Shown piece after piece: positions 4,798-62,362 of a stretch of DNA of 64,000 nt (the stretch's first letter is position 1; each line of letters starts with the position of its first letter). This DNA is from Naegleria gruberi (taxonomy: Eukaryota). A program made the position numbers and the translations under genes. Below the pieces are notes generated by a model. That model saw nothing but the letters and a program-made list of their open reading frames with translations, searched no databases and had not been told where the DNA came from. The stretch lies in the NCBI GenBank assembly GCA_000004985.1, contig GG738845.1; one strand, given 5' to 3'.

Positions 4798-5095
4798 TTA
4801 CTTTAGAAACAGTGTTACAAAATGCAAAGGATTATTTAGATCTCTCCAATCAGAATTTACAAAATTAAAAGTGGAAACAAGACAGTGACTGGTTTTAAGG
4901 ACTGTTGAATATTCAATCCAAATTGGGATTGATTTGAAAGCAGAACCGCCACCTCCTTTTGCTTCAGGTTCCTTGTTGAACAATTTCACTATATCAACAT
5001 TTGTACTTGTAATAGAAANNNNNNNNNNNNNNNNNNNNNNNNNNNNNNNNNNNNNNNNNNNNNNNNNNAATTGTTTTAAAATCCGACTTTGTCAT
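4798..5095 (-). CDS. Possible Tctex-1 family dynein light chain, interrupted by the assembly gap at 5019-5068
   Basis: The minus-strand frame ...IVKLFNKEPEAKGGGGSAFKSIPIWIEYSTVLKTSHCLVSTFNFVNSDWRDLNNPLHFVTLFLK* resembles the DYNLT C-terminal pattern (G.G...W..D.....W.N...C.V..F). A candidate ATG (MTKSDFKTI) lies on the other side of the N-run. The model is tentative. Confidence 0.3.
5019..5068. other. Assembly gap (50 N)
   Basis: Run of N characters. Confidence 1.
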
Positions 5096-14847: not shown

Positions 14848-15201
14848 TTACTTTTCTAATATGAAATCAGAATTTACGAAAGCATGATATTCATCAAACA
14901 ACTTGGTGCAATCTTTTCCTAAAATTTCATCCAAAATATCAACCCCTCCTGGGTGATGTAGTAAAAAATCTGTTATATCATAAACATATCCTCGTAAAAT
15001 TACCCAAGCATCTGATCTGGTATTGTGTTTTACAATTTCACTGTTTGTTATTTGTTTAGTTTTGTTTTGAGTAGTTGTGGGCATTTTCATGGCTTGTCTG
15101 GACCAATGCATTAAACCAAAACCACTTGGAAGAGGTACTTTTTGGCGAGTTCTTGTTGTATTGCTGGTAGATGGCAATGAGTGAGGTTCCGAAGAAGACA
15201 T
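14848..15201 (-). CDS. Cytochrome b5 heme-binding domain protein (Ncb5or/CYB5R4-like N-terminal domain)
   Basis: LPSGFGLMHWSRQ...DAWVILRGYVYDITDFLLHHPGGVDILDEILGKDCTKLFDEYH carries the HPGG heme-ligand motif and aligns with CYB5R4 (LKPGHSLMDWIRL...[27 protein letters not shown]). A GTAAGT donor overlaps the stop codon, so a short spliced C-terminal extension is possible. Confidence 0.6.
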   Translation of the reverse strand: MSSSEPHSLPSTSNTTRTRQKVPLPSGFGLMHWSRQAMKMPTTTQNKTKQITNSEIVKHNTRSDAWVILRGYVYDITDFLLHHPGGVDILDEILGKDCTKLFDEYHAFVNSDFILEK

Positions 15202-15257: not shown

Positions 15258-15668
15258 ATGTTTAAAATTGTGGATGGTAGACTTTTGGTGGACATTAAAT
15301 TATATTCGGAACATATTATTCAAGATTTAATATTATATTTTTCGTATGAGAGAATTTTAATCGGATTTATTCTGTTATTTATTTCATATTATATTATCAA
15401 AAAGATTGTAAAGAGAAGAACACTTGTTGGCAAATGTTGGAATTGTGGAGAAACATTTTATTTAACAAAAAGACAAGTGAATTTGGGATGGAAATGTCCA
15501 ACGAGGAATTGTCACTCTTTTAATAGTGGTCCTTCTTCTAATTCACAATCCTTANNNNNNNNNNNNNNNNNNNNNNNNNNNNNNNNNNNNNNNNNNNNNN
15601 NNNNTTTCTATTTATTCCTTCTTTTTGATGAACTTGTTACATATTATACTATTATTGATTGGTGGTGA
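15258..15668 (+). CDS. Hypothetical protein with a zinc-ribbon-like CWNCG...CPTRNC, broken by the assembly gap 15545-15604
   Basis: The ORF spans an N-run and the model is unreliable. Confidence 0.25.
   Translation: MFKIVDGRLLVDIKLYSEHIIQDLILYFSYERILIGFILLFISYYIIKKIVKRRTLVGKCWNCGETFYLTKRQVNLGWKCPTRNCHSFNSGPSSNSQSLXXXXXXXXXXXXXXXXXFYLFLLFDELVTYYTIIDWW
15545..15604. other. Assembly gap (60 N)
   Basis: Run of N characters. Confidence 1.
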
Positions 15669-34082: not shown

Positions 34083-34119
34083 ATAGCTAAATCAAGCAAT
34101 CAAATAAAATTTATATCTN

Positions 34120-34179
34120 NNNNNNNNNNNNNNNNNNNNNNNNNNNNNNNNNNNNNNNNNNNNNNNNNNNNNNNNNNNN
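34120..34179. other. Assembly gap (60 N)
   Basis: Run of N characters. Confidence 1.
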
Positions 34180-40307: not shown

Positions 40308-42212
40308 CTACAACAATACCTCTCCAATAAATTTACATGATTTAAGAATATCTTGTTTTCCTGATTTTGAAACACGACAATCTGTCAAATCTAAAAATCT
40401 CAAACTCCACGATCTTTTTAAATAATCAATAATCTCATCTCCTATCAGTGTGTGTGAAATAATGAGAAGTTGTAATCTTCTGAAACCCCTTTTTGAATCC
40501 ACAATTCTATTGAATATTGCCTCACAAGCAGTGTTTGCAGCGATGTTTGTATGGCTCATATCCAATGAATGCATTCTTGGAGGTAAGGAGATTGGACTTT
40601 TAAAACAACCATTACTTATCTCATTATTGCGAGCAAGATTTAAAACCTTCAATGTTGATATCTGAAATATGGCATGACAACCAATATCGGTAATGTTATT
40701 CATTGACAAATCCAATTCTTCAATACCCCTATTTTCCTTTTGTGACTGAAAGTGCTCTGATATTTTTTGAGCACTACTAGAGGTCAACCCAGTATCAATC
40801 AGTTTTAGTATCCTTAGTGGTATTTTGCAATTTTCCAAAATAGTTTCAATATGTTGATTTGATATTGTAAAACTATTAATTTCCAAATATCTTAGATTGC
40901 ACGATTCTCTCATACAAACATTATGGTTAATCTTTAATTTGGTAATAAATTTTGAAGGTATTAAATCCTTTTCATTCTGCAAGCTTTTTCGAACATCCAA
41001 ACATTTAATATTTGGAAGCTTTCTTAAAATTGTATTCATTGATTCTGTGAATAGAGAAAGAGAATAATTTCCAGCAATTTTTAATACTTTGCAATTATTG
41101 ATATTATCCAACAATGTTAAAAATCCAGTAAAATAATCAAGTGAACAAAATGATAGATCAAGGTACTCCAATGACTTGTTAGTACAAGTCTCATATTTTT
41201 CATGATCCAATTTGATACCAATATTGTATTTCAATGAAAGTTTCTGTAAATTTTTCATAGTGGTTAATATTTCAACCAAACTGTCGTCTGTTAAATCACA
41301 CCCATCCAATGATAACTCTTTTAATGATACTTTTGATGAGCATAAGCTATGTACAATTGATTTAAATAATATTCGAGTTTCTTTAGAATATTCATCCTCC
41401 AGCTGATTATTTTCAATCGAACCAAAAAGATAATTTAGTTTCAGTACTTGTAATTTGGGTGAATTGTAAAATAATTTATCGAACCATCCAACACAATTCT
41501 GAATATAATCCAGAGAATTTCTGTAAAACTTCCGTTGACATGGAAATGTCATCCCAGAGAGATCTAAATATTTTAAATTATCCAACTTGTTTTCAATTAA
41601 AGCGTTGAAATTATGCAATAAAGAACTTTCATCGGATTTAATATTTAAATATCTAATAATTGAAATAAAACTTTGTTCTCTATTAATTATATTCATTCTA
41701 CTTTTTAAAAATTCATTATTCCATAATTTTAAAACTCTATACGAATAGGGAGAAAAATCCAATTTCTCAATTGTTAAATTATTTTTTCCATGTTTTAAAT
41801 ATTGACTCATAAAATTGATGGGACTAGACAACTTGGAATTCAGAGTTAATCCCCTACAGTGTGATGGTATAAAGTTGGAAAGTACAGATATTGTAAGATT
41901 AAAATCTTGATTCTTTCCATAGGGCCATTCATATAAATTACAATATTTAATATTTGGCCAAACCAGAAATATTCTACTTCTTCCTCCTCCTTCCTTGTAT
42001 CCAAATAGTAATTTAATAAAATAGGATTTCAAATAATATAATGGTGTTGATTCATCATAGAGAGAATATAAATTTTCCAGTAATGATTGTTGTTGATTTT
42101 GAATTTTACAATCCTCCAAATATTCAATAACATAAATTGAAATATTCAATTCTAAATATTCCATAATACAATAAACAATTTCGATTGGTAAATCAACATG
42201 GGCACGAAGCAT
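40308..42212 (-). CDS. Leucine-rich-repeat protein (ribonuclease-inhibitor type) with an F-box-like N-terminus
   Basis: The N-terminus LPIEIVYCIMEYL is F-box-like, followed by repeated L..L.L..N.I units (LDLSMNNITDIGCHAIFQISTLKVLNLARNNEI...). Confidence 0.55.
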   Translation of the reverse strand: MLRAHVDLPIEIVYCIMEYLELNISIYVIEYLEDCKIQNQQQSLLENLYSLYDESTPLYYLKSYFIKLLFGYKEGGGRSRIFLVWPNIKYCNLYEWPYGKNQDFNLTISVLSNFIPSHCRGLTLNSKLSSPINFMSQYLKHGKNNLTIEKLDFSPYSYRVLKLWNNEFLKSRMNIINREQSFISIIRYLNIKSDESSLLHNFNALIENKLDNLKYLDLSGMTFPCQRKFYRNSLDYIQNCVGWFDKLFYNSPKLQVLKLNYLFGSIENNQLEDEYSKETRILFKSIVHSLCSSKVSLKELSLDGCDLTDDSLVEILTTMKNLQKLSLKYNIGIKLDHEKYETCTNKSLEYLDLSFCSLDYFTGFLTLLDNINNCKVLKIAGNYSLSLFTESMNTILRKLPNIKCLDVRKSLQNEKDLIPSKFITKLKINHNVCMRESCNLRYLEINSFTISNQHIETILENCKIPLRILKLIDTGLTSSSAQKISEHFQSQKENRGIEELDLSMNNITDIGCHAIFQISTLKVLNLARNNEISNGCFKSPISLPPRMHSLDMSHTNIAANTACEAIFNRIVDSKRGFRRLQLLIISHTLIGDEIIDYLKRSWSLRFLDLTDCRVSKSGKQDILKSCKFIGEVLL

Positions 42213-46850: not shown

Positions 46851-47635
46851 ATGGCACCACAAAAACAAAGTTTGGATCATGTTCATGAAAAGATTGTTGT
46901 TCTCGGTTCTGGAGGTGTTGGTACGTACACAAATTTATTGTCACAATAATCCCACCAATTTGAAAAGGAAAATCTGCTGTCATTTTGCAGTTTATTCAAT
47001 CGGTTTTTGTGGAAGTTTATGATCCAACATTGGAGGATTCATACAAGAAGGAGATTATTATAGATTCCACTCCTGTTACTTTAGAAATTATTGATACAGC
47101 CGGACAAGGTAGGTTTAATTTTGAAAAAGAATAACTTATTATTATTATTTTGAATTTAAATAGAGGAGTTGACAAGGTAAGAGATTTTTATGGTGGAAAT
47201 ATTTACATACATTTCATCAGTTTACGTGATAATTATGTTAAAAATGGGGATGGATTTCTTCTTGTTTATTCAATAACTTCGAGTCAATCTTTTGAGGAAA
47301 TTGAAGATTTGATTGAACAAATTATGAGAGCTAAGAATATTGATTCTGAAAACCCAACAGAATTATCAAAAAATTTATCTGCTGTCATTATTGGAAATAA
47401 AGCAGATTTACAAAATGAGAGAGCAGTATCTAATCAATCATTACAAAAACTAGGAGAAAGATTCAAAGGTAAAATTCCAATATTTGAAACATCAGCAAAG
47501 GAGAAAATTAACATTGAGGAGTCTTTCATGGCATTGGCAAGACAAATTTTTGATAAAAAGACAGGTAAACAGCCTGCCAAAAAAGAAGGTGGAACATCTT
47601 CAAATAGCTCAGAATCGTGTTGTATTCTTTTATAA
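46851..47635 (+). CDS. Ras-family small GTPase (Ras/Rap-like) with a C-terminal prenylation motif (-CCILL). Four exons: 46851..46920, 46968..47108, 47164..47176 (a 13-nt micro-exon) and 47221..47635
   Basis: The spliced product reads MAPQKQSLDHVHEKIVVLGSGGV|GKSAVILQFIQSVFVEVYDPTLEDSYKKEIIIDSTPVTLEIIDTAGQ|EELT|SLRDNYVKNGDGFLLVYSITS...IGNKADL...ETSAKE. The G1, switch I, G3, G4 and G5 motifs are intact only with this splicing. Introns are 47, 55 and 44 nt with GTACGT, GTAGGT and GTAAGA donors. Confidence 0.8.
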
Positions 47636-49663: not shown

Positions 49664-51385
49664 ATGACGGAACAATGCAACACAACAAACCAAAATTTGA
49701 ACATCACTATGGAAGATATCCAATTAACTACAACCCCTCCTTCGAAGCTACAAACAATAGATAGGAGAAAAAACTTTGTTAATAGAAATGATCTGGTGAG
49801 ATTGATTGTGCAAGCATTGTATACTTTGGATTATAAAGAAAGTGCAGATTTGTTGGAAAAAGAGTCTGGCATTGATTACCTTTCAAAAGATATTTTACAG
49901 TTAAAAAATTGTATTTTAAAAGGAGATTGGAATCAATCACTCAATATAATTGATCAAACACTAAACAACTCAAATTGTAAGAATATTAATGCCGTAAAGT
50001 ATTACATACTCGAGGAAAAATATATGGAACAACTTTGTGATAGAAATGCAGAAAAAGCATTGATTACTTTAAGAGAAGAGATTACTCCTCTTGTAGTATC
50101 AATTCCCACTCAAAACAATTATACTTCTACTGTTACTAACAATAGTACAATAACTGTACATAATTTACAACAATTAGCAAGTTATCTTGTTTGCACTAAT
50201 ATAGAAGATTTGAAAAATTTGTCTAAATGGAAAAGTATCGAAGGTGGATCAAGAAATGAACTTTTGGAACAAATTCAAAAATTGATTTCCCCTTCATTGA
50301 TTATTCCAGAAAACAAATTAGAACAACTATTATTAACTGCCGTAGAAAATCAAAAAAGAGATTCAATGAGTGATGAGGATATTGATGAAAATGATATGGA
50401 TGAGTCTGAAGATGGAGTTGTATTGTTGAGCAAAAAGTTTTCAATTAATGAAGAAACTTCCATTAGGAAAATTCCAAACAAGATACTACTTACTTTGGAG
50501 GATCACGGTGACGAAGTTTGGATATGTAAATTTTCTAATAATGGACAATTACTGGCAACTTCTAGTATTGACCATTGTATCAATATTTATTCTGTTGAAG
50601 AAGTGTTATCGATAGAAAAAACGAGCCCAAAATTCAAATTACTTTCCTCTGGAAATGTAGTATCACTTTGCTTTTCCCCGGATGATAAGGATTTGCTAGC
50701 TGCAACATGTGACGGAAACGTACACATCTGGAATATTGTTAGTGGTGAACAAAGGGCTTGTTTGAAAAATTTTTCAAATATTGTGGCAGCTTTTTGGAAT
50801 GAAAGTGGGAATCAATTTATTACTATTTCTTCTGAAAAAAGCTCACAAATATCTGTTTGGGAGAAAGATTCAGTTACCATTACAAAATCATTCAAAATTG
50901 ATACACGTATTCAGGATGCTTCTTTATTGAAAGATAATTTAATTATCGTGGCTACTCATGAAAGACAATTACTTTGTTACAATTTGGAGGAGAAAAAACT
51001 TGTAGAGAAAATGAGTGAGGATTATCTCATAACAAGTCTCTGTTCTAGTAAGACTGGAAGATTTGTATTGGTTTCTTTCTGTTCTGAAGATGAAGATGAA
51101 CCTGCTTTAATTCATTTATGGGATTTAAGGGAAAAGAAGATTATTTCAACATTTGAAGGTCTTTGGTCTTTAAAATATGTGATGAGACCAATTTTTATGG
51201 GAAGAGATTTGGTGAGTTGTGGAAGTGAAGATTGTAAAATTTATATTTGGAACAAATCTACTGGTGAGCTTATTGAGACTCTTACTGGTCATTCAGGAGT
51301 TGTAAACTCTGTCGATTACAATGTAAAGTTTGGACTGATAGCTTCTGCCAGTGACGATACAACAGTAAAGATTTGGCGTGATTAA
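49664..51385 (+). CDS. LisH-CTLH-WD40 protein (WDR26/Gid7-like)
   Basis: LisH-like RNDLVRLIVQALYTLDYKESADLLEKESGI, then a CTLH region, then at least 6 WD repeats (...LATSSIDHCINIYSV..., ...LAATCDGNVHIWNI..., ...IASASDDTTVKIWRD). Confidence 0.65.
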   Translation: MTEQCNTTNQNLNITMEDIQLTTTPPSKLQTIDRRKNFVNRNDLVRLIVQALYTLDYKESADLLEKESGIDYLSKDILQLKNCILKGDWNQSLNIIDQTLNNSNCKNINAVKYYILEEKYMEQLCDRNAEKALITLREEITPLVVSIPTQNNYTSTVTNNSTITVHNLQQLASYLVCTNIEDLKNLSKWKSIEGGSRNELLEQIQKLISPSLIIPENKLEQLLLTAVENQKRDSMSDEDIDENDMDESEDGVVLLSKKFSINEETSIRKIPNKILLTLEDHGDEVWICKFSNNGQLLATSSIDHCINIYSVEEVLSIEKTSPKFKLLSSGNVVSLCFSPDDKDLLAATCDGNVHIWNIVSGEQRACLKNFSNIVAAFWNESGNQFITISSEKSSQISVWEKDSVTITKSFKIDTRIQDASLLKDNLIIVATHERQLLCYNLEEKKLVEKMSEDYLITSLCSSKTGRFVLVSFCSEDEDEPALIHLWDLREKKIISTFEGLWSLKYVMRPIFMGRDLVSCGSEDCKIYIWNKSTGELIETLTGHSGVVNSVDYNVKFGLIASASDDTTVKIWRD

Positions 51386-51438
51386 AAATATTTTCAACAT
51401 AAAAAATCTATTACTTAGTTACACCTCGGAACGATACT

Positions 51439-52397
51439 ATGAACAATCAAGTTAATAATAAATCAAAGCCAAAGTACATGTATAAAATTATTTTTGTTGG
51501 AGATAGTACTTGTGGAAAGACGTATGTAATTTATGATCAAATAATAATTGATATTATTTTGGATTTTATTAAAGAGCATTTATTCAACAATATGTAAATA
51601 ATTACTTCTCCAAGACTTATAAATCAACTCTAGGTGTGGACTTCTCATATAAAGAGTATGACTATGATGAAAATACATGTTTTAATTTACAAGTAGGTTA
51701 ATATTTATGTAACTTATTAATTATTCCAAATCAAAGTTTTGGGTAAGTTTTGTATTTTCATATTATGTTTAATCGAATAATAGGATATTGCAGGACAGGA
51801 AAGGTTTGTTTTGGATATTATTAATTATTATAAAAATTGTTAAAGATTCGGAAGTAAGTACTTTCCCAATTGTTCCAATAATTAACAAAGATTAAAGCCA
51901 TGACAAGTGTTTTTTATAGAGATGCTGTTGTTGCTGTGATTATGTATGATGTGACAAATCCTGTGACATTTGATCATACTAAAGATTGGAAAATTGATAT
52001 TGATTCAAAAGTTTTTCTTCCACCACTCAATGAAAATGATTCTGATGATATTCCAATACCTTGTATTCTAGTTGGAAATAAGATTGATTTAAACAAACAT
52101 GAGAAGCTTAATTTCAAACCAAACGAATTGGATGAATATGTTAAAAAACATGGATTTGCTGGATGGGTTGAAACAAGTGCAAAAGATAGGACAAATATGG
52201 ATAAGGCTGTAAAAATGATAGTGGAACAGGTATTAAAATATCACGAGAAGGAAGTTCAAAGAGAAATTAGACCAGAAAATCCAATGGCAATCAATATCGA
52301 TAAGCTTGTTGGAGATATGCCAAAGAGTGACGATGGATTGAATTCTGAGGATGCCAAGAAAAAGAATTCGTCTTCAGGATCTTGTTGTTCTAAATAA
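51439..52397 (+). CDS. Rab32/38-like small GTPase. Six exons: 51439..51521, 51575..51692, 51737..51742 (6 nt), 51784..51803 (20 nt), 51846..51853 (8 nt) and 51898..52397
   Basis: Spliced: [98 protein letters not shown]...VGNKIDL...ETSAKD...GSCCSK. The reconstructed [13 protein letters not shown] matches Rab32 ([23 protein letters not shown]). Donors are GTATGT, GTAGGT, GTAAGT, GTTTGT and GTAAGT, and introns are 41-53 nt. The micro-exons are inferred from motif restoration. Confidence 0.7.
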
Positions 52398-52446
52398 TCA
52401 TTTATAAAACATATGGAAATTCCAAACTTGACATTCAAGTAAAAAA

Positions 52447-53068
52447 ATGACTTTAAGCAAACACACAATCATTCCTCCAACAATCATTAACTTCTTTTCC
52501 GATGATAATCATGAGTCACAATTTGTTATTGAGTATTCTATTCATAAATGTCCTCTACTGTTAAAATCCGATATGAACAAAATATTTCCAAGTGCCAAAC
52601 AAATATTCGAGAAGCAACAACTCTACATAATACCAACCTTTCAACATGTATCATGCCCTCTGTTCGTTTTTGATGAGGAAAGTAGTAAACAAAAAGATGA
52701 CAGACTTCATAAGGTTTGTTTTATAATTATTTGAGAGTTATATCGTTTCGTAGTTTTATTCATTTTCTAATTGTTTGAAAGAGTATATTGACACTTTATC
52801 ACAAGGCTACTGGAGTGATTATACGGATCCAGTAACTGGTTATCCAATGTTATCAGAGAGAGGAGGAATGCTTTACAGTGATGTGGATGGTTGTGAAATG
52901 TTTTTAAAGAGCTACACCGTTGATTATTCAATTGCAGAGTGTAGACTCATTTCCCATCCACTTTGGAAAACTCAAGTATATCCTGCTACCTTTTTTACAA
53001 CATGCCCTCCAGAACTACTTGCCGATTTTTTCAACCATTATAAACTTGTGGACAGTAATATTATTTAA
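52447..53068 (+). CDS. MMADHC: MMADHC (cblD) homologue, a cobalamin-trafficking protein. Two exons: 52447..52713 and 52784..53068, with a 70-nt GTTTGT...AAAGAG intron
   Basis: IEYSIHKCPLLLKSDMNKIFPSA...QQLYIIPTFQ and GYWSDYTDPVTGYPMLSERGGMLYSDVDGCEMFLKSYTVDYSIAECRLISHPLWKTQVYPATFFTTCPPELL align with human MMADHC ([23 protein letters not shown]... and [21 protein letters not shown]...[27 protein letters not shown]). The second track ORF starts at TTG. Confidence 0.7.
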
Positions 53069-53115
53069 ATTAAAATAAAAAATTAAATTATATTATTTTA
53101 AAATTAATAAAAAAA

Positions 53116-54801
53116 ATGAAAATCATCAAATCATCAACATCCTCCGTTTTGAATGCTTTTAACAGAGGAAGAACAGTATCACCTAAAGTTATTTTTCTTT
53201 CTGGAAATAAATTTACCATCAATAACAATAATTATCAAATAATTGCATTTAACAATGTTGGTGGAATGCTGAGAGCATTTTCTTCATTAAATTATTATAA
53301 TAATATTTCCCAAAGTTCTACAATTATTAATATCAATACTGGTATTGAACAAGACATTAGGAAAGCAAAAGACTTGCTCAAGGAGGGGTTTTCCGAGTTT
53401 GAAAATAGGCAATATTTAAAAAGCTATGAGCTTTTTATTAGGGCCTTTTTACTTTTTGACAAACATCAATTATTAACAAGAGAAATTAAGTTAAATGATG
53501 ATAATTTGACAGTTGACTCTTTATTAGCACTTTCAATTGGATTGAATAACTTTGCCGAAACTCTTAGATATATGGCAAAAAGTGGTATTGTGCCTCCAAC
53601 TTTGGCCAAATTGGGACTTAAAGCACCGTCAGTAACAACAGGAACTACAGCTCCTCTTGTTTATACCTCAAAAGATTCAATGAAATTTTATACACAGGCA
53701 GAACAATTATATGAACAGTATCAAAATTTTCTATTAAAGAACCAATCAAATAATAATAGAAAATTATTGGAATTGACACTTTGGAAAGGTACTTTATATA
53801 ACAATGTTGGACTTTATTTTATGGAAAATAGAAGAGATTTTTTCACTGCAACCAAATGGTTTGAAAAGAGTGCAACAGAAAGAGGAAAACTTGTGAAGGA
53901 ATTGGAGGAATTAGAAAATGACAAGGCCACCAAACACGAGGAAGTTGTAAATCAATATGGAGAATCTGAGGACCCATTGAATGCCAACGATCAAAGAATA
54001 CACTTTGCAATCACAAGAAACAATATTGCTCAATGCTATTCTAATTCTAAGCAAATTACTCTTGCCTTGGAAAGTTACAATTACGCTTTGAAGGTTTTTG
54101 AGGATATTAAGGCGAAATTGAAAGAGAAAGAAATCAAATGTATTACACCAGAGAGTAAGAATACTATTGCTAACAGACTTCACATAATTGTATTGAATAA
54201 TATGGGATTAATGTATCATGATCTTGGAAAGTATGAACAATCATTGACATACTTTTCTGAAGCATTTTTCATGTTCACAGGTGGACCAGTGAATGGAGAA
54301 AAACTTGGTGAAGAAGGGCTTATTGTTAATAATCAAATAGGAACTCAATATTTTGGAGAAGAGTTGGGTGTTACCTTGTCAAATATGGGTACAAGTTTAT
54401 TCATGTTAGGTAGATATAGAGAATGTGAACAATTTTACAGACAAGCTATGGGCTTATTTGATGTTATTTATGAAAATACTCCAAACCATAAGAATATTGC
54501 ACAAGTTAGTCTTCAATTAGCCCTTTGCTTGAAGCAAAAACATTCAGCAAAGGAGGGAGAAAAGCCAAACAAGGATTTACTGGCTGCTGCTACTTCATTA
54601 GCCCTCGCCAAACAGGACCCATCCTATTTTATCAAACTTGATTCGAATGCATCAGAAGAAATGATTGGAGATGAAAAGCAAGTTAGGCACTTGATAGAAA
54701 AGGCCAAGAAAATAACATCAACCTTTGCGGATGCAAATACAGAAGCAGTAGAGAATACCAAAAAGTCAATGTTTTCTAAAATGTTTGGAAAGAAAAAATA
54801 A
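53116..54801 (+). CDS. TPR-repeat protein (kinesin-light-chain-type repeats), about 560 aa
   Basis: Several 34-aa TPR units such as NNMGLMYHDLGKYEQSLTYFSEA and SNMGTSLFMLGRYRECEQFYRQA. Confidence 0.5.
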   Translation: MKIIKSSTSSVLNAFNRGRTVSPKVIFLSGNKFTINNNNYQIIAFNNVGGMLRAFSSLNYYNNISQSSTIININTGIEQDIRKAKDLLKEGFSEFENRQYLKSYELFIRAFLLFDKHQLLTREIKLNDDNLTVDSLLALSIGLNNFAETLRYMAKSGIVPPTLAKLGLKAPSVTTGTTAPLVYTSKDSMKFYTQAEQLYEQYQNFLLKNQSNNNRKLLELTLWKGTLYNNVGLYFMENRRDFFTATKWFEKSATERGKLVKELEELENDKATKHEEVVNQYGESEDPLNANDQRIHFAITRNNIAQCYSNSKQITLALESYNYALKVFEDIKAKLKEKEIKCITPESKNTIANRLHIIVLNNMGLMYHDLGKYEQSLTYFSEAFFMFTGGPVNGEKLGEEGLIVNNQIGTQYFGEELGVTLSNMGTSLFMLGRYRECEQFYRQAMGLFDVIYENTPNHKNIAQVSLQLALCLKQKHSAKEGEKPNKDLLAAATSLALAKQDPSYFIKLDSNASEEMIGDEKQVRHLIEKAKKITSTFADANTEAVENTKKSMFSKMFGKKK

Positions 54802-57089: not shown

Positions 57090-60000
57090 CTAACAACTTA
57101 CATCAACATAAAGTGAAAGGTAGGTCCACATTAAGTTGGCGGAATAATACATGATGGATGTATTACCTTTGAGAAGTGTTGCTATTTTTAGAACTAAAAC
57201 ACACAATTCTTCCACTCTTAATATTAAGGTGCTCATACTTCTACAAAATAGTAGATTTCTGAATATTATAACGAGATATTCTTTCACTGCTTCGTTTGGG
57301 CTTTTTTCGAATTGTTCAAATAAATGGTCAATAGTATCAGATTGTAAGAAAGATTCATGGCAATCTTCAAAGAATGACAAATGAGACAACAGCTTTAAAC
57401 AGTATTCCATTCTTGTGTCATCTTTCTTCTTGATAAATATTTCTTTAAGACCATTGATGATTTTATCAACTAGTCCATACTTTAACATGGAATATCTAAC
57501 CTCTCCTGTACTAATCAGAGAACTTAATAACATGAAATAGGCATGACTATTAGTGAGCTTGCTTTTGGCTGATAATGATCCGCTAACAATATCAAGTAGA
57601 AGAGAATTGTTTTTGTTCTTGTTAATATCTTTTGCAAACTCAAGTTTGCTTCTCTCACAATTAGTGACCATATTTAGATAAACGTAAAGCAATGATAACC
57701 TTATTTCTGAGTCTGTAAAATCAGAGAACCAAATATATTTTAGATCTTGAAATAGGTTAAAGTCATTAGATACCTTCTTGGCATGGTTAGATAGAAATAA
57801 GTGTTGGAAAATGGAAAGGTTGAGGACAAGTTGATGTTTTAGCTTATCAATACTGTTACACTTTTCTGACCTGGAGGTGTGCATAAAATCGATAGAAAGG
57901 GAAGAAACAATCTTTCTGTTGAATGTACAATTACTCTCAATTATAGACTCTTGAACCTTTTCTTTTGTGGTTGTGTAAATGTTCAGAATCCAAGATAGAG
58001 ATTTACCAAGTATAAAACATTCCTCACAATCGATATTTGCAAAAAAGTTATCTTGACTTGAATAGTACAATCGTTGAATCTCGTCCACTATTTGCATCAC
58101 ATATTCATTTTCTCCTAGTTCAGAATTATATGGAAAACATTTTCTTCCAATTAGGGTTGTTACATATTTTGAAACTGTTATATTCACATTAATAGAGAGT
58201 GATGACTGGAGGGTAGCAGAAATAATTTTTAGAGTATTTTCCCTAGTTTTCAAATATTCTAGAGATAGATCATCATTTTTGGCAAATGCAACTAGATTAT
58301 TCATAATACAAAACGCTAATTCTATCAATTTGTCAGTTTTCTTAACTGTTAGTAATGTTCCAACAATCTTTTGTATATTATCCACCAATGTAGTGTCTCT
58401 GATCAGGTATGAAGCAATATCATTATTGTTTTGTATGATTTTCTTAACAACTTTCAATAAATTTTCTAAGGAATTATAAGAGATTGTTCCTAAATAGGCT
58501 ACATCCTCTAATTTTTGCAATATATAATTTAAAGAACTGTTTTCAAAGAGAACCTTACTCTGTGAAGATGGATCCCTCAGTAATAATTGATATATAAGAG
58601 CAGTTACAGATTCTAAATTTCTATCTCCTAGATTGAATAATTGTGGGAATGGAATACATTCCAAAAATCTATTCAAAGGCTCTGAGCTTAGAGAAATGTA
58701 TTTACATATTATCCAAATGCATTGATCCTTAACTATGTCAGTATCTGCGCTGGAAAGTTTGCTCACTATTAATTCTACCAGCTTTGGGTTTGATTTCTCT
58801 AACAGTCCAAAAGTTTCTTTGGTGTGCAATCCGTTCGAAATTATGCTGAAAATGCTCTCTCGTACATTAAAATTTTTCGAAAATATTAAAGAAAGAAATA
58901 TTTCGTGTTCTTTAACAATATCTATCCACGATATTTCGTATTTTCTTAATAATCCTGAAAGGGACTCTAACGACTTCAAACAAATGTGTTCGCAATGTGA
59001 CCCAAAACAAACTCCAGCTTCAAACGCTTCTCTTTCTTGTAAGAGTACTTGCAAAATATCTTCAAAAGTGGATTTCAATATCTCTAAACTATCAATAGAG
59101 AATATTTTACCACTCATTCCAATCCTACAAATACATCTTAACGAGTCTACTCTTAGATCATAGGGAATCTTCTTTTTGATAAAATTTCTTAGGGAAATAA
59201 GTAGCAACTCATCATTCAGTAATAATTTCAACTCATCTACACACTCTTCTTCCTGTAGGGATTGTGTGCAAAAATCTAAAAATTTCAGCATACAAGCCCT
59301 TAAGCTTGTACGATCATGAACCAGGTGATCTGTTTGGCTTGGTTGTAAAATAGTAATAAAGTTTTTGCAAAAACAATAAGAGAGTTCAGAAATCAAATCC
59401 CTCTCAAATCTCTTTTTTTTCGCTATTGTAGAGAAAAAACCTATTAAATTTTCCAAAACAAGATCATCTGCTTTGCTGGTAGGCGCTTTTTGTAAGAACT
59501 TGAAGATTACTCTTCTCCAGTCACTTTCACAAAAGATATCGAAACAATGTTCATCCATCATTAGAAAGTCCTGAAGAATTTGAAGATTTGTTAGGAATTC
59601 TCCATGACTTCTAGATTGTGAAAGCTTTAAAAGTGAGTTCTTAATAAAAATTTTTGGATGGATTTCATAAAGAACTTCAAATTGTTGGTCTTCTGAATTT
59701 TCGGTGAATGATTTGTTAAATTTGAAAAAATTCACTAATTCTGTTGAGTAGACTTTCGTATCACTTTCACATTCAATTTTGTAAAATGAGGAGTGTGGAA
59801 ATGTGTAAAATGATTCTGATATATTTTTTAGAATTGGATTTGCTTTCTCATTTGTTTCAAACACCATCTGTGTTTTGAATCCATTACTATTCCTTACATA
59901 TCTGTCCTTAGAAAACACTATTCTACTTAGAAACATAAAAGAGAGCTTTCTAACTACTAAATCAACATGGAAAAGTACTAAGGGAACTAAGAAAATAGAA

Positions 60001-62362
60001 TATGACCAATTAACTTACATTTGTATAGGGAGGAAAGTTTGGATTCTTCCATTGCAAATTCTTTGTTATCAAAAATAAGAATTAATAACACAAGCAACTC
60101 CTTAGAAATATTTTCTAATGTTCTGTTTAAGACTATTTCTGCTACCTCCTTAGATAAAATTTTGCTGTTGAGTGGTTGAATTCTCAACAGAGTACATAAT
60201 TGATTAGCAACTGATTTCAAAATAAGAGAGTCCTCTGTGTCTCTCATTAGTGATACTAGTGATTCAATATCAATATCAAAACTATCATTTGGGATGGGTG
60301 AATCAAAAAATCTATCCACATCCTCTAAATAGCAACTTAAAAAGGGATCACCTTCTTTGAGTTCGATATAATTTTCTGTTTTCAAATCTAAAATAAATAG
60401 AGATTTGAGGTTAACACTTGCTGTCTCTCTAATCCACTTATATTTGTGGAATAAAAATCTCGTGTGATAAGCCAATAGTTCTTCCTTTGTCATTAGTCTT
60501 TCAAATAATTGAAGAGTAGAAGTAACTTCATCTAAACTATCTTTAGCTGAGAGAATATTTTCAGAGTATTTGATAGTGCATTGTAATAAGGGAAGGTTTG
60601 GTAAAAATCCTCTTATTGAACAAGGACTGTTTTGAACGATATCCAAAGTAGTCTTTACCGATTCTTCCAATTCTATGGAGTGAAGAGATATTAGGTAGAA
60701 TATATCTTCAGAAGCAAGCTTTTCAAGAAACACATGTTGATCTTCTGCAATGAATTTAATTGCATAGCTTCTAATATCCTTATTATTACAAGAAAGCAAG
60801 TCCAACAACAACTCTCTACAAGAATCTTCTAAAAACTCGGATGTTATAAATAATTCTTGCATGTATCTTTCTAAAATTCGCGCATCGAATGTATGTGGTA
60901 GTATTAGAAATATGTTACGAAGCCTGCTTAGATGTGCTTCTGCATCAGGTAGTACATCACAATCTTCGTCCATCAATTGTTCCAACAGCTTGAAAGATTT
61001 TTCAATCTCTGGGAGTGTATTGAAATTGTTGCACGCCTTATTCTCAAAACGTTGAACTTGATTCAAAACTTGTTTGTGTATTTGAGGAAAACACAAATAT
61101 AAATTATTGTCAAATAAAAAATTCTCCAAAATAGGGCTAAGTTTTTCAATACAGTCCATTAACTGAAATTAGTTAATAAATAAGGATAAATATATTAGGA
61201 TACTTACGATGGTAGAGCTTGATCTGTTCAAAATTGTTGTTAGTAGATCGACAATTTTATAAGTATCCAAAATATCTAGTTTCTCGTGCAATAAATTTCC
61301 AATATCCTCATAAATATTTATCAAACTTTCCATTAATGTGAGCTTGTCTAATGAACAAATTTGTTCTAAGAAACAATTCAAAATCAATTTAAGGATATCA
61401 ACAAGTCTTCCCAGCAATGAAGGTTTAAGTTTGAAAATATATATAAATTTAGAATAACAATATTTGAAAATATATAGCATTGAATCAGTGTCAACAAATG
61501 TATAGCTCTCTAGAGAATTATTAAGAATTTTCAAAGACGCTTTGTCAAATAAAACACTCAAACATTCTAAAACTTGTAAATCTATTGCCATTCCAAAATC
61601 ACTCTGAATCGATGACACCAAGGACTACATAATTTAAGTCAATTAATTGATCTCAAACTTACCCTAATAATTTCTGGGCTTTGAACAAAGTATTCGATTG
61701 GAAACTCCAATAAGGGTGATTTTTTGAGATCTGAAAGAGCCTCTTGTATCAAGTCCACTCTCCTTTGTTGAAGTTTTACGTTGATTTCAAATAAATATTG
61801 TTTGTCCAATTCTGCCAAATCAGCTTTTTTAATAGCCTTCCTAGTATTTTTTGGTTCTTTCTGTGGCATGTTTTCTCTTGTAGAATATATCTGAAATCGA
61901 GAAGTATGTAAATCAGTAGATGATTGATTTAAAATAGATTGCTCTTGGTAAATAGTGACAATATTTTCCTTCTCATTTCTTACTTGTTTTAATACTTCCA
62001 CTATTGAATCAACATCGGAATGAATATCTTCAGGAGCATACAATCTCAAAGTTTGAAAAAATCCTATAGCTCCAATCTCTATCAAAATCAAAGCACTTGT
62101 TTTACTCTGTTCTGAGTTAGTGTTTTTGGATATTGTTACAAACCTTAGCAAATTCTCGCACAAGTTGTATTACTTGCCGATAATAAAAACAAGGATTATT
62201 GTTGAACCATTTCAACAAGGCTACTAATAGCTGCTCATCATCCTCGGAAGACTGCACATTAACAACTCCATATTTGAATTTATTTAATAAATTTGCCATT
62301 GCTCTCTTCTTAATTTCAATGTTGGGATTATCCAACTTTTCCAGCAATCCCGAACAAGTCAT
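57090..62362 (-). CDS. Rotatin (RTTN/Ana3)-like giant helical-repeat protein, about 1730 aa. Five exons: 62362..62144, 62106..61663, 61624..61208, 61162..60019 and 59986..57090
   Basis: The five minus-strand track ORFs join in frame through introns of 37, 38, 45 and 32-41 nt (GTTTGT, GTAAGT, GTAAGT and GTAAGT donors); each track stop falls inside an intron. The N-terminus MTCSGLLEKLDNPNIEIKKRAMANLLNKFKYGV...QLLVALLKWFNNNP...QVIQLVREFAK...IGAIGFFQTLR aligns with human rotatin ([28 protein letters not shown]...QLFLHLLEWFNFP...LLSRLVKYPP...VGAVEFLSKLR). Confidence 0.55.

Follow-up and report, generated by a model that had tools for sequence, protein, structure and literature searches.

The window analysed in this study, a 64,000-nt stretch of the Naegleria gruberi contig GG738845.1, is AT-rich, with a GC content of about 30-35%, and its genes are eukaryotic, with introns that are short. 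Base-by-base reconstruction of positions 51439-52397 on the plus strand revealed a six-exon gene of the Rab32 family, with exons of 83, 118, 6, 20, 8 and 500 nt separated by introns of 53, 44, 41, 42 and 44 nt, all of the GT..AG form. A coding micro-exon is defined here as an internal exon of 30 nt or less lying between spliceosomal introns. The exons of 6, 20 and 8 nt fall within this size, are internal, are flanked by AG and GT, are required by the reading frame and by a conserved segment of the protein, and are conserved in orthologues whose introns diverge. The features of the gene are as follows.

51439..51521, plus strand: exon 1, 83 nt, from M1 to the first two bases of the T28 codon; P-loop GDSTCGKT
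51522..51574, plus strand: intron 1, 53 nt, GTATGT...AAAG; retention gives a stop at codon 53
51575..51692, plus strand: exon 2, 118 nt, finishing T28 and running to Q67; switch I and beta2-beta3; ends ...CFNLQ in phase 0
51693..51736, plus strand: intron 2, 44 nt, GTAGGT...AAAG; phase 0 between Q67 and F68
51737..51742, plus strand: micro-exon A, 6 nt, TTTTGG, encoding F68 W69 at the end of beta3; AAAG before, GTAAGT after
51743..51783, plus strand: intron 3, 41 nt, GTAAGT...ATAG; phase 0 between W69 and D70
51784..51803, plus strand: micro-exon B, 20 nt, GATATTGCAGGACAGGAAAG, encoding D70 I71 A72 G73 Q74 E75 and two bases of R76; G3 box DxxGQ; ATAG before, GTTTGT after
51804..51845, plus strand: intron 4, 42 nt, GTTTGT...AAAG; phase 2 in the R76 codon; length a multiple of 3, with an in-frame TAA inside
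51846..51853, plus strand: micro-exon C, 8 nt, ATTCGGAA, encoding the last base of R76, F77, G78 and the first base of T79; AAAG before, GTAAGT after
51854..51897, plus strand: intron 5, 44 nt, GTAAGT...AAAG; phase 1 in the T79 codon
51898..52397, plus strand: exon 6, 500 nt including the TAA stop; remaining switch II, G4 NKID, G5 ETSAK and the CCSK prenylation motif

The spliced coding sequence is 735 nt long and in frame, giving a protein of 244 aa with CCSK at its C-terminus. All five introns (41-53 nt) are located inside the first 460 nt of the gene, four of them within 205 nt, and the 500-nt 3' exon is intron-free. As genes of N. fowleri have about two exons on average (PMC8296547), this intron density is unusually high, and it is biased towards the 5' end. 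The introns have a GC content of 19% compared with 31% in the exons, and a YTRAY-like motif (TTAAT, TTAAC or TTGAT) was found in each of them, 11-23 nt from the 3' end. Across the micro-exons the predicted spliced string reads ...TTTAATTTACAA-TTTTGG-GATATTGCAGGACAGGAAAG-ATTCGGAA-CCATGACAAG...; CAATTTTGGGAT is the predicted junction with the 6-nt exon, CAAGATATTGC the predicted delta-FW junction and AATTTGCAATTTTGGGATATTGCAGGCCAAGAAAGATTCGGAACCATGACATCGG the predicted N. fowleri spliced k-mer across the micro-exons.

An initial annotation, which had read these micro-exons from the letters and a list of open reading frames, proved exact in their coordinates and sequences, in the AG acceptors and GTAAGT or GTTTGT donors, and in placing them between introns of 41-44 nt (44, 41, 42 and 44 nt in the reconstruction). 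Its remark that open reading frames alone would miss G3 and switch II was likewise confirmed, given that the mechanical list contains only the last exon at this locus (51900-52397). The protein P0002 is an ORF-style call of exon 6 alone.

Identity of the spliced product and its orthologues

The spliced product is covered by the Pfam Ras family (E 1e-40, profile positions 1-161 of 162) and contains the G1-G5 motifs of a Ras-fold GTPase, including NKID and ETSAK. As for the alignment to Rab32 and Rab38 that had been put forward as a check on the spliced model, a PDB search returned human Rab32 (3e-51), Rab38 (3e-48) and Rab7L1 (Rab29; 6e-47), with Rab7 as the next family at about 3e-32, and the human Rab32 alignment runs without a gap through the whole G3/switch-II segment encoded by the micro-exons. 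The named database matches were Rab32 or Rab7L1. In a 25-sequence Rab32-family alignment D70, I71, A72, G73, Q74 and E75 are invariant, W69 occurs in 23 of the 25, and both Cys columns of the terminal ...GSCCSK are invariant as well. Other Rabs have Thr at the Ile position of WDIAGQERF, and the Trp of the switch region is part of a conserved hydrophobic triad in the Rab structure. By sequence, the predicted product belongs to the Rab32/Rab38/Rab29 subfamily, with the WDIAGQERF form of G3/switch II. Of three Rab32 paralogues reported in N. fowleri, one is upregulated following passage through mice (PMC8296547).

The closest named proteins are those of N. fowleri (76%), N. lovaniensis and Willaertia magna (62-63%), identity to the N. 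fowleri and N. lovaniensis orthologues being 76-78%. A search of the annotated N. gruberi proteome yielded paralogues only, the best at 44%. For a comparative test, orthologous DNA was fetched and spliced models were built for the following loci.

N. fowleri (L001): internal exons of 118, 6, 20 and 8 nt, intron phases as in the window
N. lovaniensis (L007): internal exons of 118, 6, 20 and 8 nt, intron phases as in the window
Relative from a JGI metagenome (L005): 6-nt exon, then a fused 28-nt exon; Arg-codon intron absent
ENA contig (L006): 8-nt exon seen, reading ATTTGGAA
Willaertia (L002): ...FWDI in a larger exon, then a single 14-nt exon, GCTGGACAAGAAAG; only the phase-2 Arg-codon intron is shared in the switch-II segment

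The search of related genomes that the initial annotation had suggested thus found the 6/20/8 pattern in both N. fowleri and N. lovaniensis. Exon 2 measures 118 nt in all four of the Naegleria-type orthologues. The intron position between exons 1 and 2 (phase 2, in a T codon) is common to N. fowleri, N. lovaniensis, L005 and Willaertia, that of intron 4 is shared with Willaertia and missing in L005, and that of intron 5 is shared with N. fowleri, N. lovaniensis, L005 and L006. TTTTGG with its AG and GT flanks is identical at positions 3348-3353 of L001, 3330-3335 of L007 and 2643-2648 of L005. Over the 34 micro-exon bases, 31-32 are identical to N. fowleri and N. lovaniensis and the differences are all synonymous; micro-exon B is 20 nt in these two species with synonymous changes only, and micro-exon C is identical in both.

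Intron identity, on the other hand, is 42-58% when the window is compared with N. fowleri or N. lovaniensis, and 62-69% when these two are compared with each other. The introns are also shorter in the window (41-44 nt) than in N. fowleri and N. lovaniensis (47-89 nt): the orthologues of intron 3 are 89, 66 and 49 nt long against 41 nt in the window and only 42-50% alignable, and across four taxa the introns flanking the 6-nt exon range over 38-59 and 41-89 nt. Retention of micro-exons while introns diverge is the pattern expected from purifying selection on a spliced coding sequence. Judged from these comparisons, the 6/20/8 layout is old, as at least three Naegleria-type species share the whole of it and two more taxa have partial versions. 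A metagenome scan for further orthologous loci gave one unrelated match, at 30% identity.

Two observations concern the surroundings of the gene. A metagenome contig (L003/L004; ENA ERZ929261, run ERR1078381, project PRJEB11402) encodes the same last-exon protein, and its first 400 bases match the window from exon 2 into exon 6, so that the organism of the window or a near-identical strain was present in that sample. The Rab gene has an RCC1/WD40_RLD gene on one side and an ArsA/Get3-type ATPase gene on the other in both N. fowleri and N. lovaniensis. In the window (49664-54801) it is located between a 573-aa WD40 ORF and unrelated ORFs, a neighbourhood unlike those of L001, L007 and L005. A look-up of the 573-aa ORF found no identical recorded protein.

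Deposited gene models and rival readings

Since the deposited N. lovaniensis protein P0121 (XP_044552657.1 / KAG2388665.1) is identical to the six-exon model and uses all three micro-exons, the 6/20/8 structure is already in public annotation. The expectation that such structures would be invisible to annotation was accordingly correct for ORF-style calling but not for eukaryotic gene finders, which recovered the structure in N. lovaniensis. The deposited Willaertia model contains a 14-nt exon. The deposited N. fowleri protein P0001 (XP_044562610.1 / KAF0977897.1) has the 20-nt and 8-nt exons and no 6-nt exon, and thus lacks FW, while the skipped TTTTGG is present between ATAG and GTATGT at L001 3348-3353 (VFQX01000033.1). 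Exons of this size are commonly overlooked by short-read aligners (PMC8831610), and this would account for the omission of TTTTGG from the N. fowleri model; the absence of FW is likely to be an annotation error such as has been reported in plants (PMC8831610). When heterolobosean genomes are annotated by ORF calling or under short-read guidance, catalytic residues of real genes are lost in this way, and the Rab32 paralogue model of a pathogen, N. fowleri, appears to contain a correctable error in which a conserved Phe-Trp pair is missing. Exact look-ups of the spliced protein and of the FW-restored N. fowleri protein in the protein collection returned none, so that the collection holds no assembled cDNA confirming the junctions, and the cluster members were all genome-derived.

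All GT..AG paths with introns of at least 30 nt were enumerated across the 205-nt gap between exons 2 and 6. The enumeration gave 286 paths, 64 of which are open and six contain DxAGQE, and a single one gives an ungapped Rab32 sequence. An 11-residue Rab32 motif is matched at 11/11 positions by the real sequence, at 4/11 by the best of 2000 shuffles, and at no more than 3/11 by the 159 other GT..AG stretches of the window; the single motif-giving path and the shuffle maximum of 4/11 exclude a chance origin. The reading frame depends on the structure throughout: retention of any one of the five introns leads to an early stop, and any skip that includes the 20-nt or the 8-nt exon, singly or together with others, puts the product out of frame. 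Skipping of the 6-nt exon alone is the only frame-neutral skip.

A decaying pseudogene, with micro-exons that are chance fragments, might be suspected from the fact that ORF calling alone recovers the last exon and nothing more. This is extremely improbable in view of the full motif set against 4/11 or less in the shuffles, the exclusively synonymous cross-species differences in the micro-exons, and the intact state of every G motif and of the prenylation motif, and it was ruled out by the path enumeration, the shuffles and the cross-species conservation together. Splicing along another path, either from a donor at 51752 (a 15-nt exon, with VSF inserted) or by reading through intron 4 to a donor at 51839 (a 55-nt exon), would leave the product open and containing DIAGQE in both cases. 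The residues so inserted are however present in no homologue, the donors are weaker (GTATTT at 51752 and GTTAAA at 51839), the introns would be very short (32 and 59 nt), and neither path is available in the orthologues, whose introns differ, so these alternatives are considered very unlikely.

It is also conceivable that the 6-nt exon is unused or confined to a minority form, the main mRNA joining exon 2 to the 20-nt exon and encoding a Rab without F68 and W69. Such a product would stay in frame, and the deposited N. fowleri P0001 has exactly this form. This is nevertheless unlikely: TTTTGG with an AG acceptor and a GTAAGT, GTATGT or GTAGGT donor has been kept in four taxa despite changed introns, the deposited N. 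lovaniensis model includes the exon, and P0001 is the sole sequence among 25 Rab32-family homologues with a gap at the Phe-Trp columns. The predicted inclusion of the 6-nt exon is based on this conservation and on protein homology. Very probably, the locus is a functional, constitutively spliced Rab32-family gene of a Naegleria-type heterolobosean, in which the 6-, 20- and 8-nt exons, when joined, would restore codons 68-79 (the end of beta3, the G3 box and the start of switch II). That the micro-exons rebuild the G3/switch-II motif had been the central proposal of the initial annotation, and it is upheld by the ungapped Rab32 alignment, the needs of the frame and the conservation in orthologues.

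Other small exons in the window

A second GTPase gene, Ras/Rap-like, was found at 46851-47635 on the plus strand, with exons of 70, 141, 13 and 415 nt and a product of 212 aa that has the CAAX end CILL. It also contains a micro-exon (slashes in the motif mark the exon junctions).

47164..47176, plus strand: 13-nt micro-exon, AGGAGTTGACAAG, in the switch II of the Ras/Rap-like gene, DTAGQ/EELT/SLRD; flanking introns of 55 and 44 nt

The spliced product matches its Willaertia orthologue across DTAGQEELTSLRD, and ORF calling gives a 161-aa piece running into an intron. No micro-exon is present in the Willaertia orthologue, whose one intron here is 4 nt away; a metagenomic relative shares the 3' intron alone. 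Two pattern scans of the whole window re-found both GTPase loci and gave no other convincing case among the candidates read. The suggestion that structures of this kind may be common in the genome thus gained one further gene, and the scans did not extend it.

Several candidates were rejected on inspection. Those at 40995-41446 are in sequence with an uninterrupted minus-strand translation, the one at 53372-53396 is inside the continuous ORF 53116-54801, and the one at 14852-14855 is really a single 43-nt intron. A cytochrome-b5-like gene at 15201-14780 (minus strand) seems to extend past its apparent stop via a 43-nt intron (GTAAGT...TATAG, about 14851-14809) into a short last exon, ...FILEK/CLVGVVSKN. 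A relaxed scan gave further candidates on the minus strand, at 61208-61223 and 59955-59977. They are placed near the start of, and in the space between, two large ORFs of that strand (59987-61159 and 57090-59936), which may be one gene joined by an intron. Runs of N at 5019-5068, 15555-15604 and 34119-34179 (50, 50 and 61 bases) are assembly gaps or masked stretches, and one of them interrupts ORFs near 15.5 kb.

Splicing of the micro-exons and comparison with known systems

The splice sites of the micro-exons are ordinary U2-type GT..AG sites, and the intron lengths match those of other introns in the window, so the claim that exons this small require unusual splice-site definition was not borne out. 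The U12-type 5' splice site has the consensus [AG]TATCCTT, which the donors of this gene (GTATGT, GTAGGT, GTAAGT, GTTTGT and GTAAGT) do not fit. A helper RNA structure bringing the splice sites together received no support from the fold of 51680-51910 (z = -0.97, no signal), and no match to any Rfam family was found anywhere in the window. An introner-like origin was also rejected, introns 2-5 having pairwise identities of 0.59-0.67 against a shuffle baseline of 0.58 (sd 0.05, maximum 0.72). The same applies to a proto-splice-site hot spot (MAG/R), which one of the four junctions fits (AAG/A) and the others (CAA/T, TGG/G and GAA/C) do not.

As would be expected at a length of about 40 nt, each of the introns is probably recognised individually, by intron definition. 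The introns have a GTWNGT donor, a branch-like TTAAT, TTAAC or TTGAT motif and a WAG acceptor. With only 6-20 nt between an acceptor and the next donor, neighbouring spliceosomes would probably be unable to assemble simultaneously. Because of this spacing, we infer that the four introns are removed one after another, so that every step joins a micro-exon to a larger exon. The same argument has been made for plant micro-exons, where two spliceosomes cannot occupy both flanking introns at once (PMC8831610). Having three micro-exons and four introns of about 42 nt in 205 nt, the gene could be used to study the order and handling of exons smaller than the spliceosome footprint under intron definition.

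Micro-exons in this segment are not confined to Naegleria. In the Rab7L1 gene of the cnidarian Nematostella vectensis (P0060, L012 3178-3193, OW051985.1), also a Rab32/38/29-type GTPase, LWDIA(G) is encoded by a 16-nt micro-exon, TTATGGGATATAGCAG, flanked by introns of 1400 and 357 nt. The upstream of these, a phase-0 intron, is placed between Q and (L/F)W, exactly at the intron 2 position of the window gene. Unlike the window gene, this Nematostella gene has one micro-exon, and the 3' boundary of the exon is elsewhere, in the G codon (phase 1). Micro-exons are absent from the canonical Rab32 paralogue of N. lovaniensis (P0006, L009), which has two introns only, at T/I and Q/E. In a Rab32-like gene of the cryptophyte Guillardia theta (JH993068.1, L011 about 651-707) a GC-AG intron interrupts DIAGQ/E, and this Q/E position and its phase 0 are those of the canonical N. 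lovaniensis paralogue (L009 about 706-806).

When the Rab32-family genes read are taken together, codons 67-79 (13 codons) contain at least seven intron positions, two of which are shared across supergroups. On the basis of these two shared positions it might be speculated, although we are inclined to doubt it, that the switch-II segment of Rab32-family genes, and perhaps of other small GTPase genes, preserves a remnant of a very old intron-dense structure. Were this so, no other survivor would be as complete as the Naegleria 6/20/8 cluster, which stands in an otherwise intron-poor genome, and the 6-nt exon between introns of 44 and 41 nt would be a natural test case for obligatory ordered splicing under intron definition. 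Intron positions shared or shifted among Naegleria, Willaertia, Guillardia and Nematostella also provide a convenient marker for intron gain and loss.

The exon of 6 nt had been thought near the lower limit reported anywhere, and this does not hold. A constitutive 1-nt exon (in Arabidopsis APC11) and 3-nt exons are documented (PMC4674806), and the thousands of plant exons of 1-15 nt include 2,398 of 15 nt or less in ten plants, mostly unannotated (PMC8831610). Like the exons described here, land-plant micro-exons (1-15 nt; PMC8831610, PMC4674806) are tiny, lie inside conserved domains and are conserved together with their intron positions. They are also often missed or misannotated, and loss of an intron can join them to an adjacent exon, as seen in L005. 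They differ in belonging to a different supergroup and in being supported by RNA-seq, the window gene being known from DNA and homology; the window gene in turn has three micro-exons in tandem within 205 nt, with introns of about 42 nt between them.

In animals, regulated neuronal micro-exons of 3-27 nt have been described (PMC4317164, PMC8378409), which share with the present exons the size class and the steric problem for the spliceosome. These are alternative cassette exons between long introns and have dedicated regulators, RBFOX and PTBP1 in human brain (PMC4317164) and PRP-40 in Caenorhabditis elegans neurons (PMC8378409). The window gene, by contrast, belongs to a unicellular organism and has very short introns, and skipping of either of two of its three micro-exons would shift the frame. 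A literature search for micro-exons in Naegleria found no paper describing them. The Rab32-like gene is a further example of a known phenomenon and leaves current concepts unchanged; what sets it apart is the tandem trio in 205 nt, its conservation and the error in the gene model of a pathogen.
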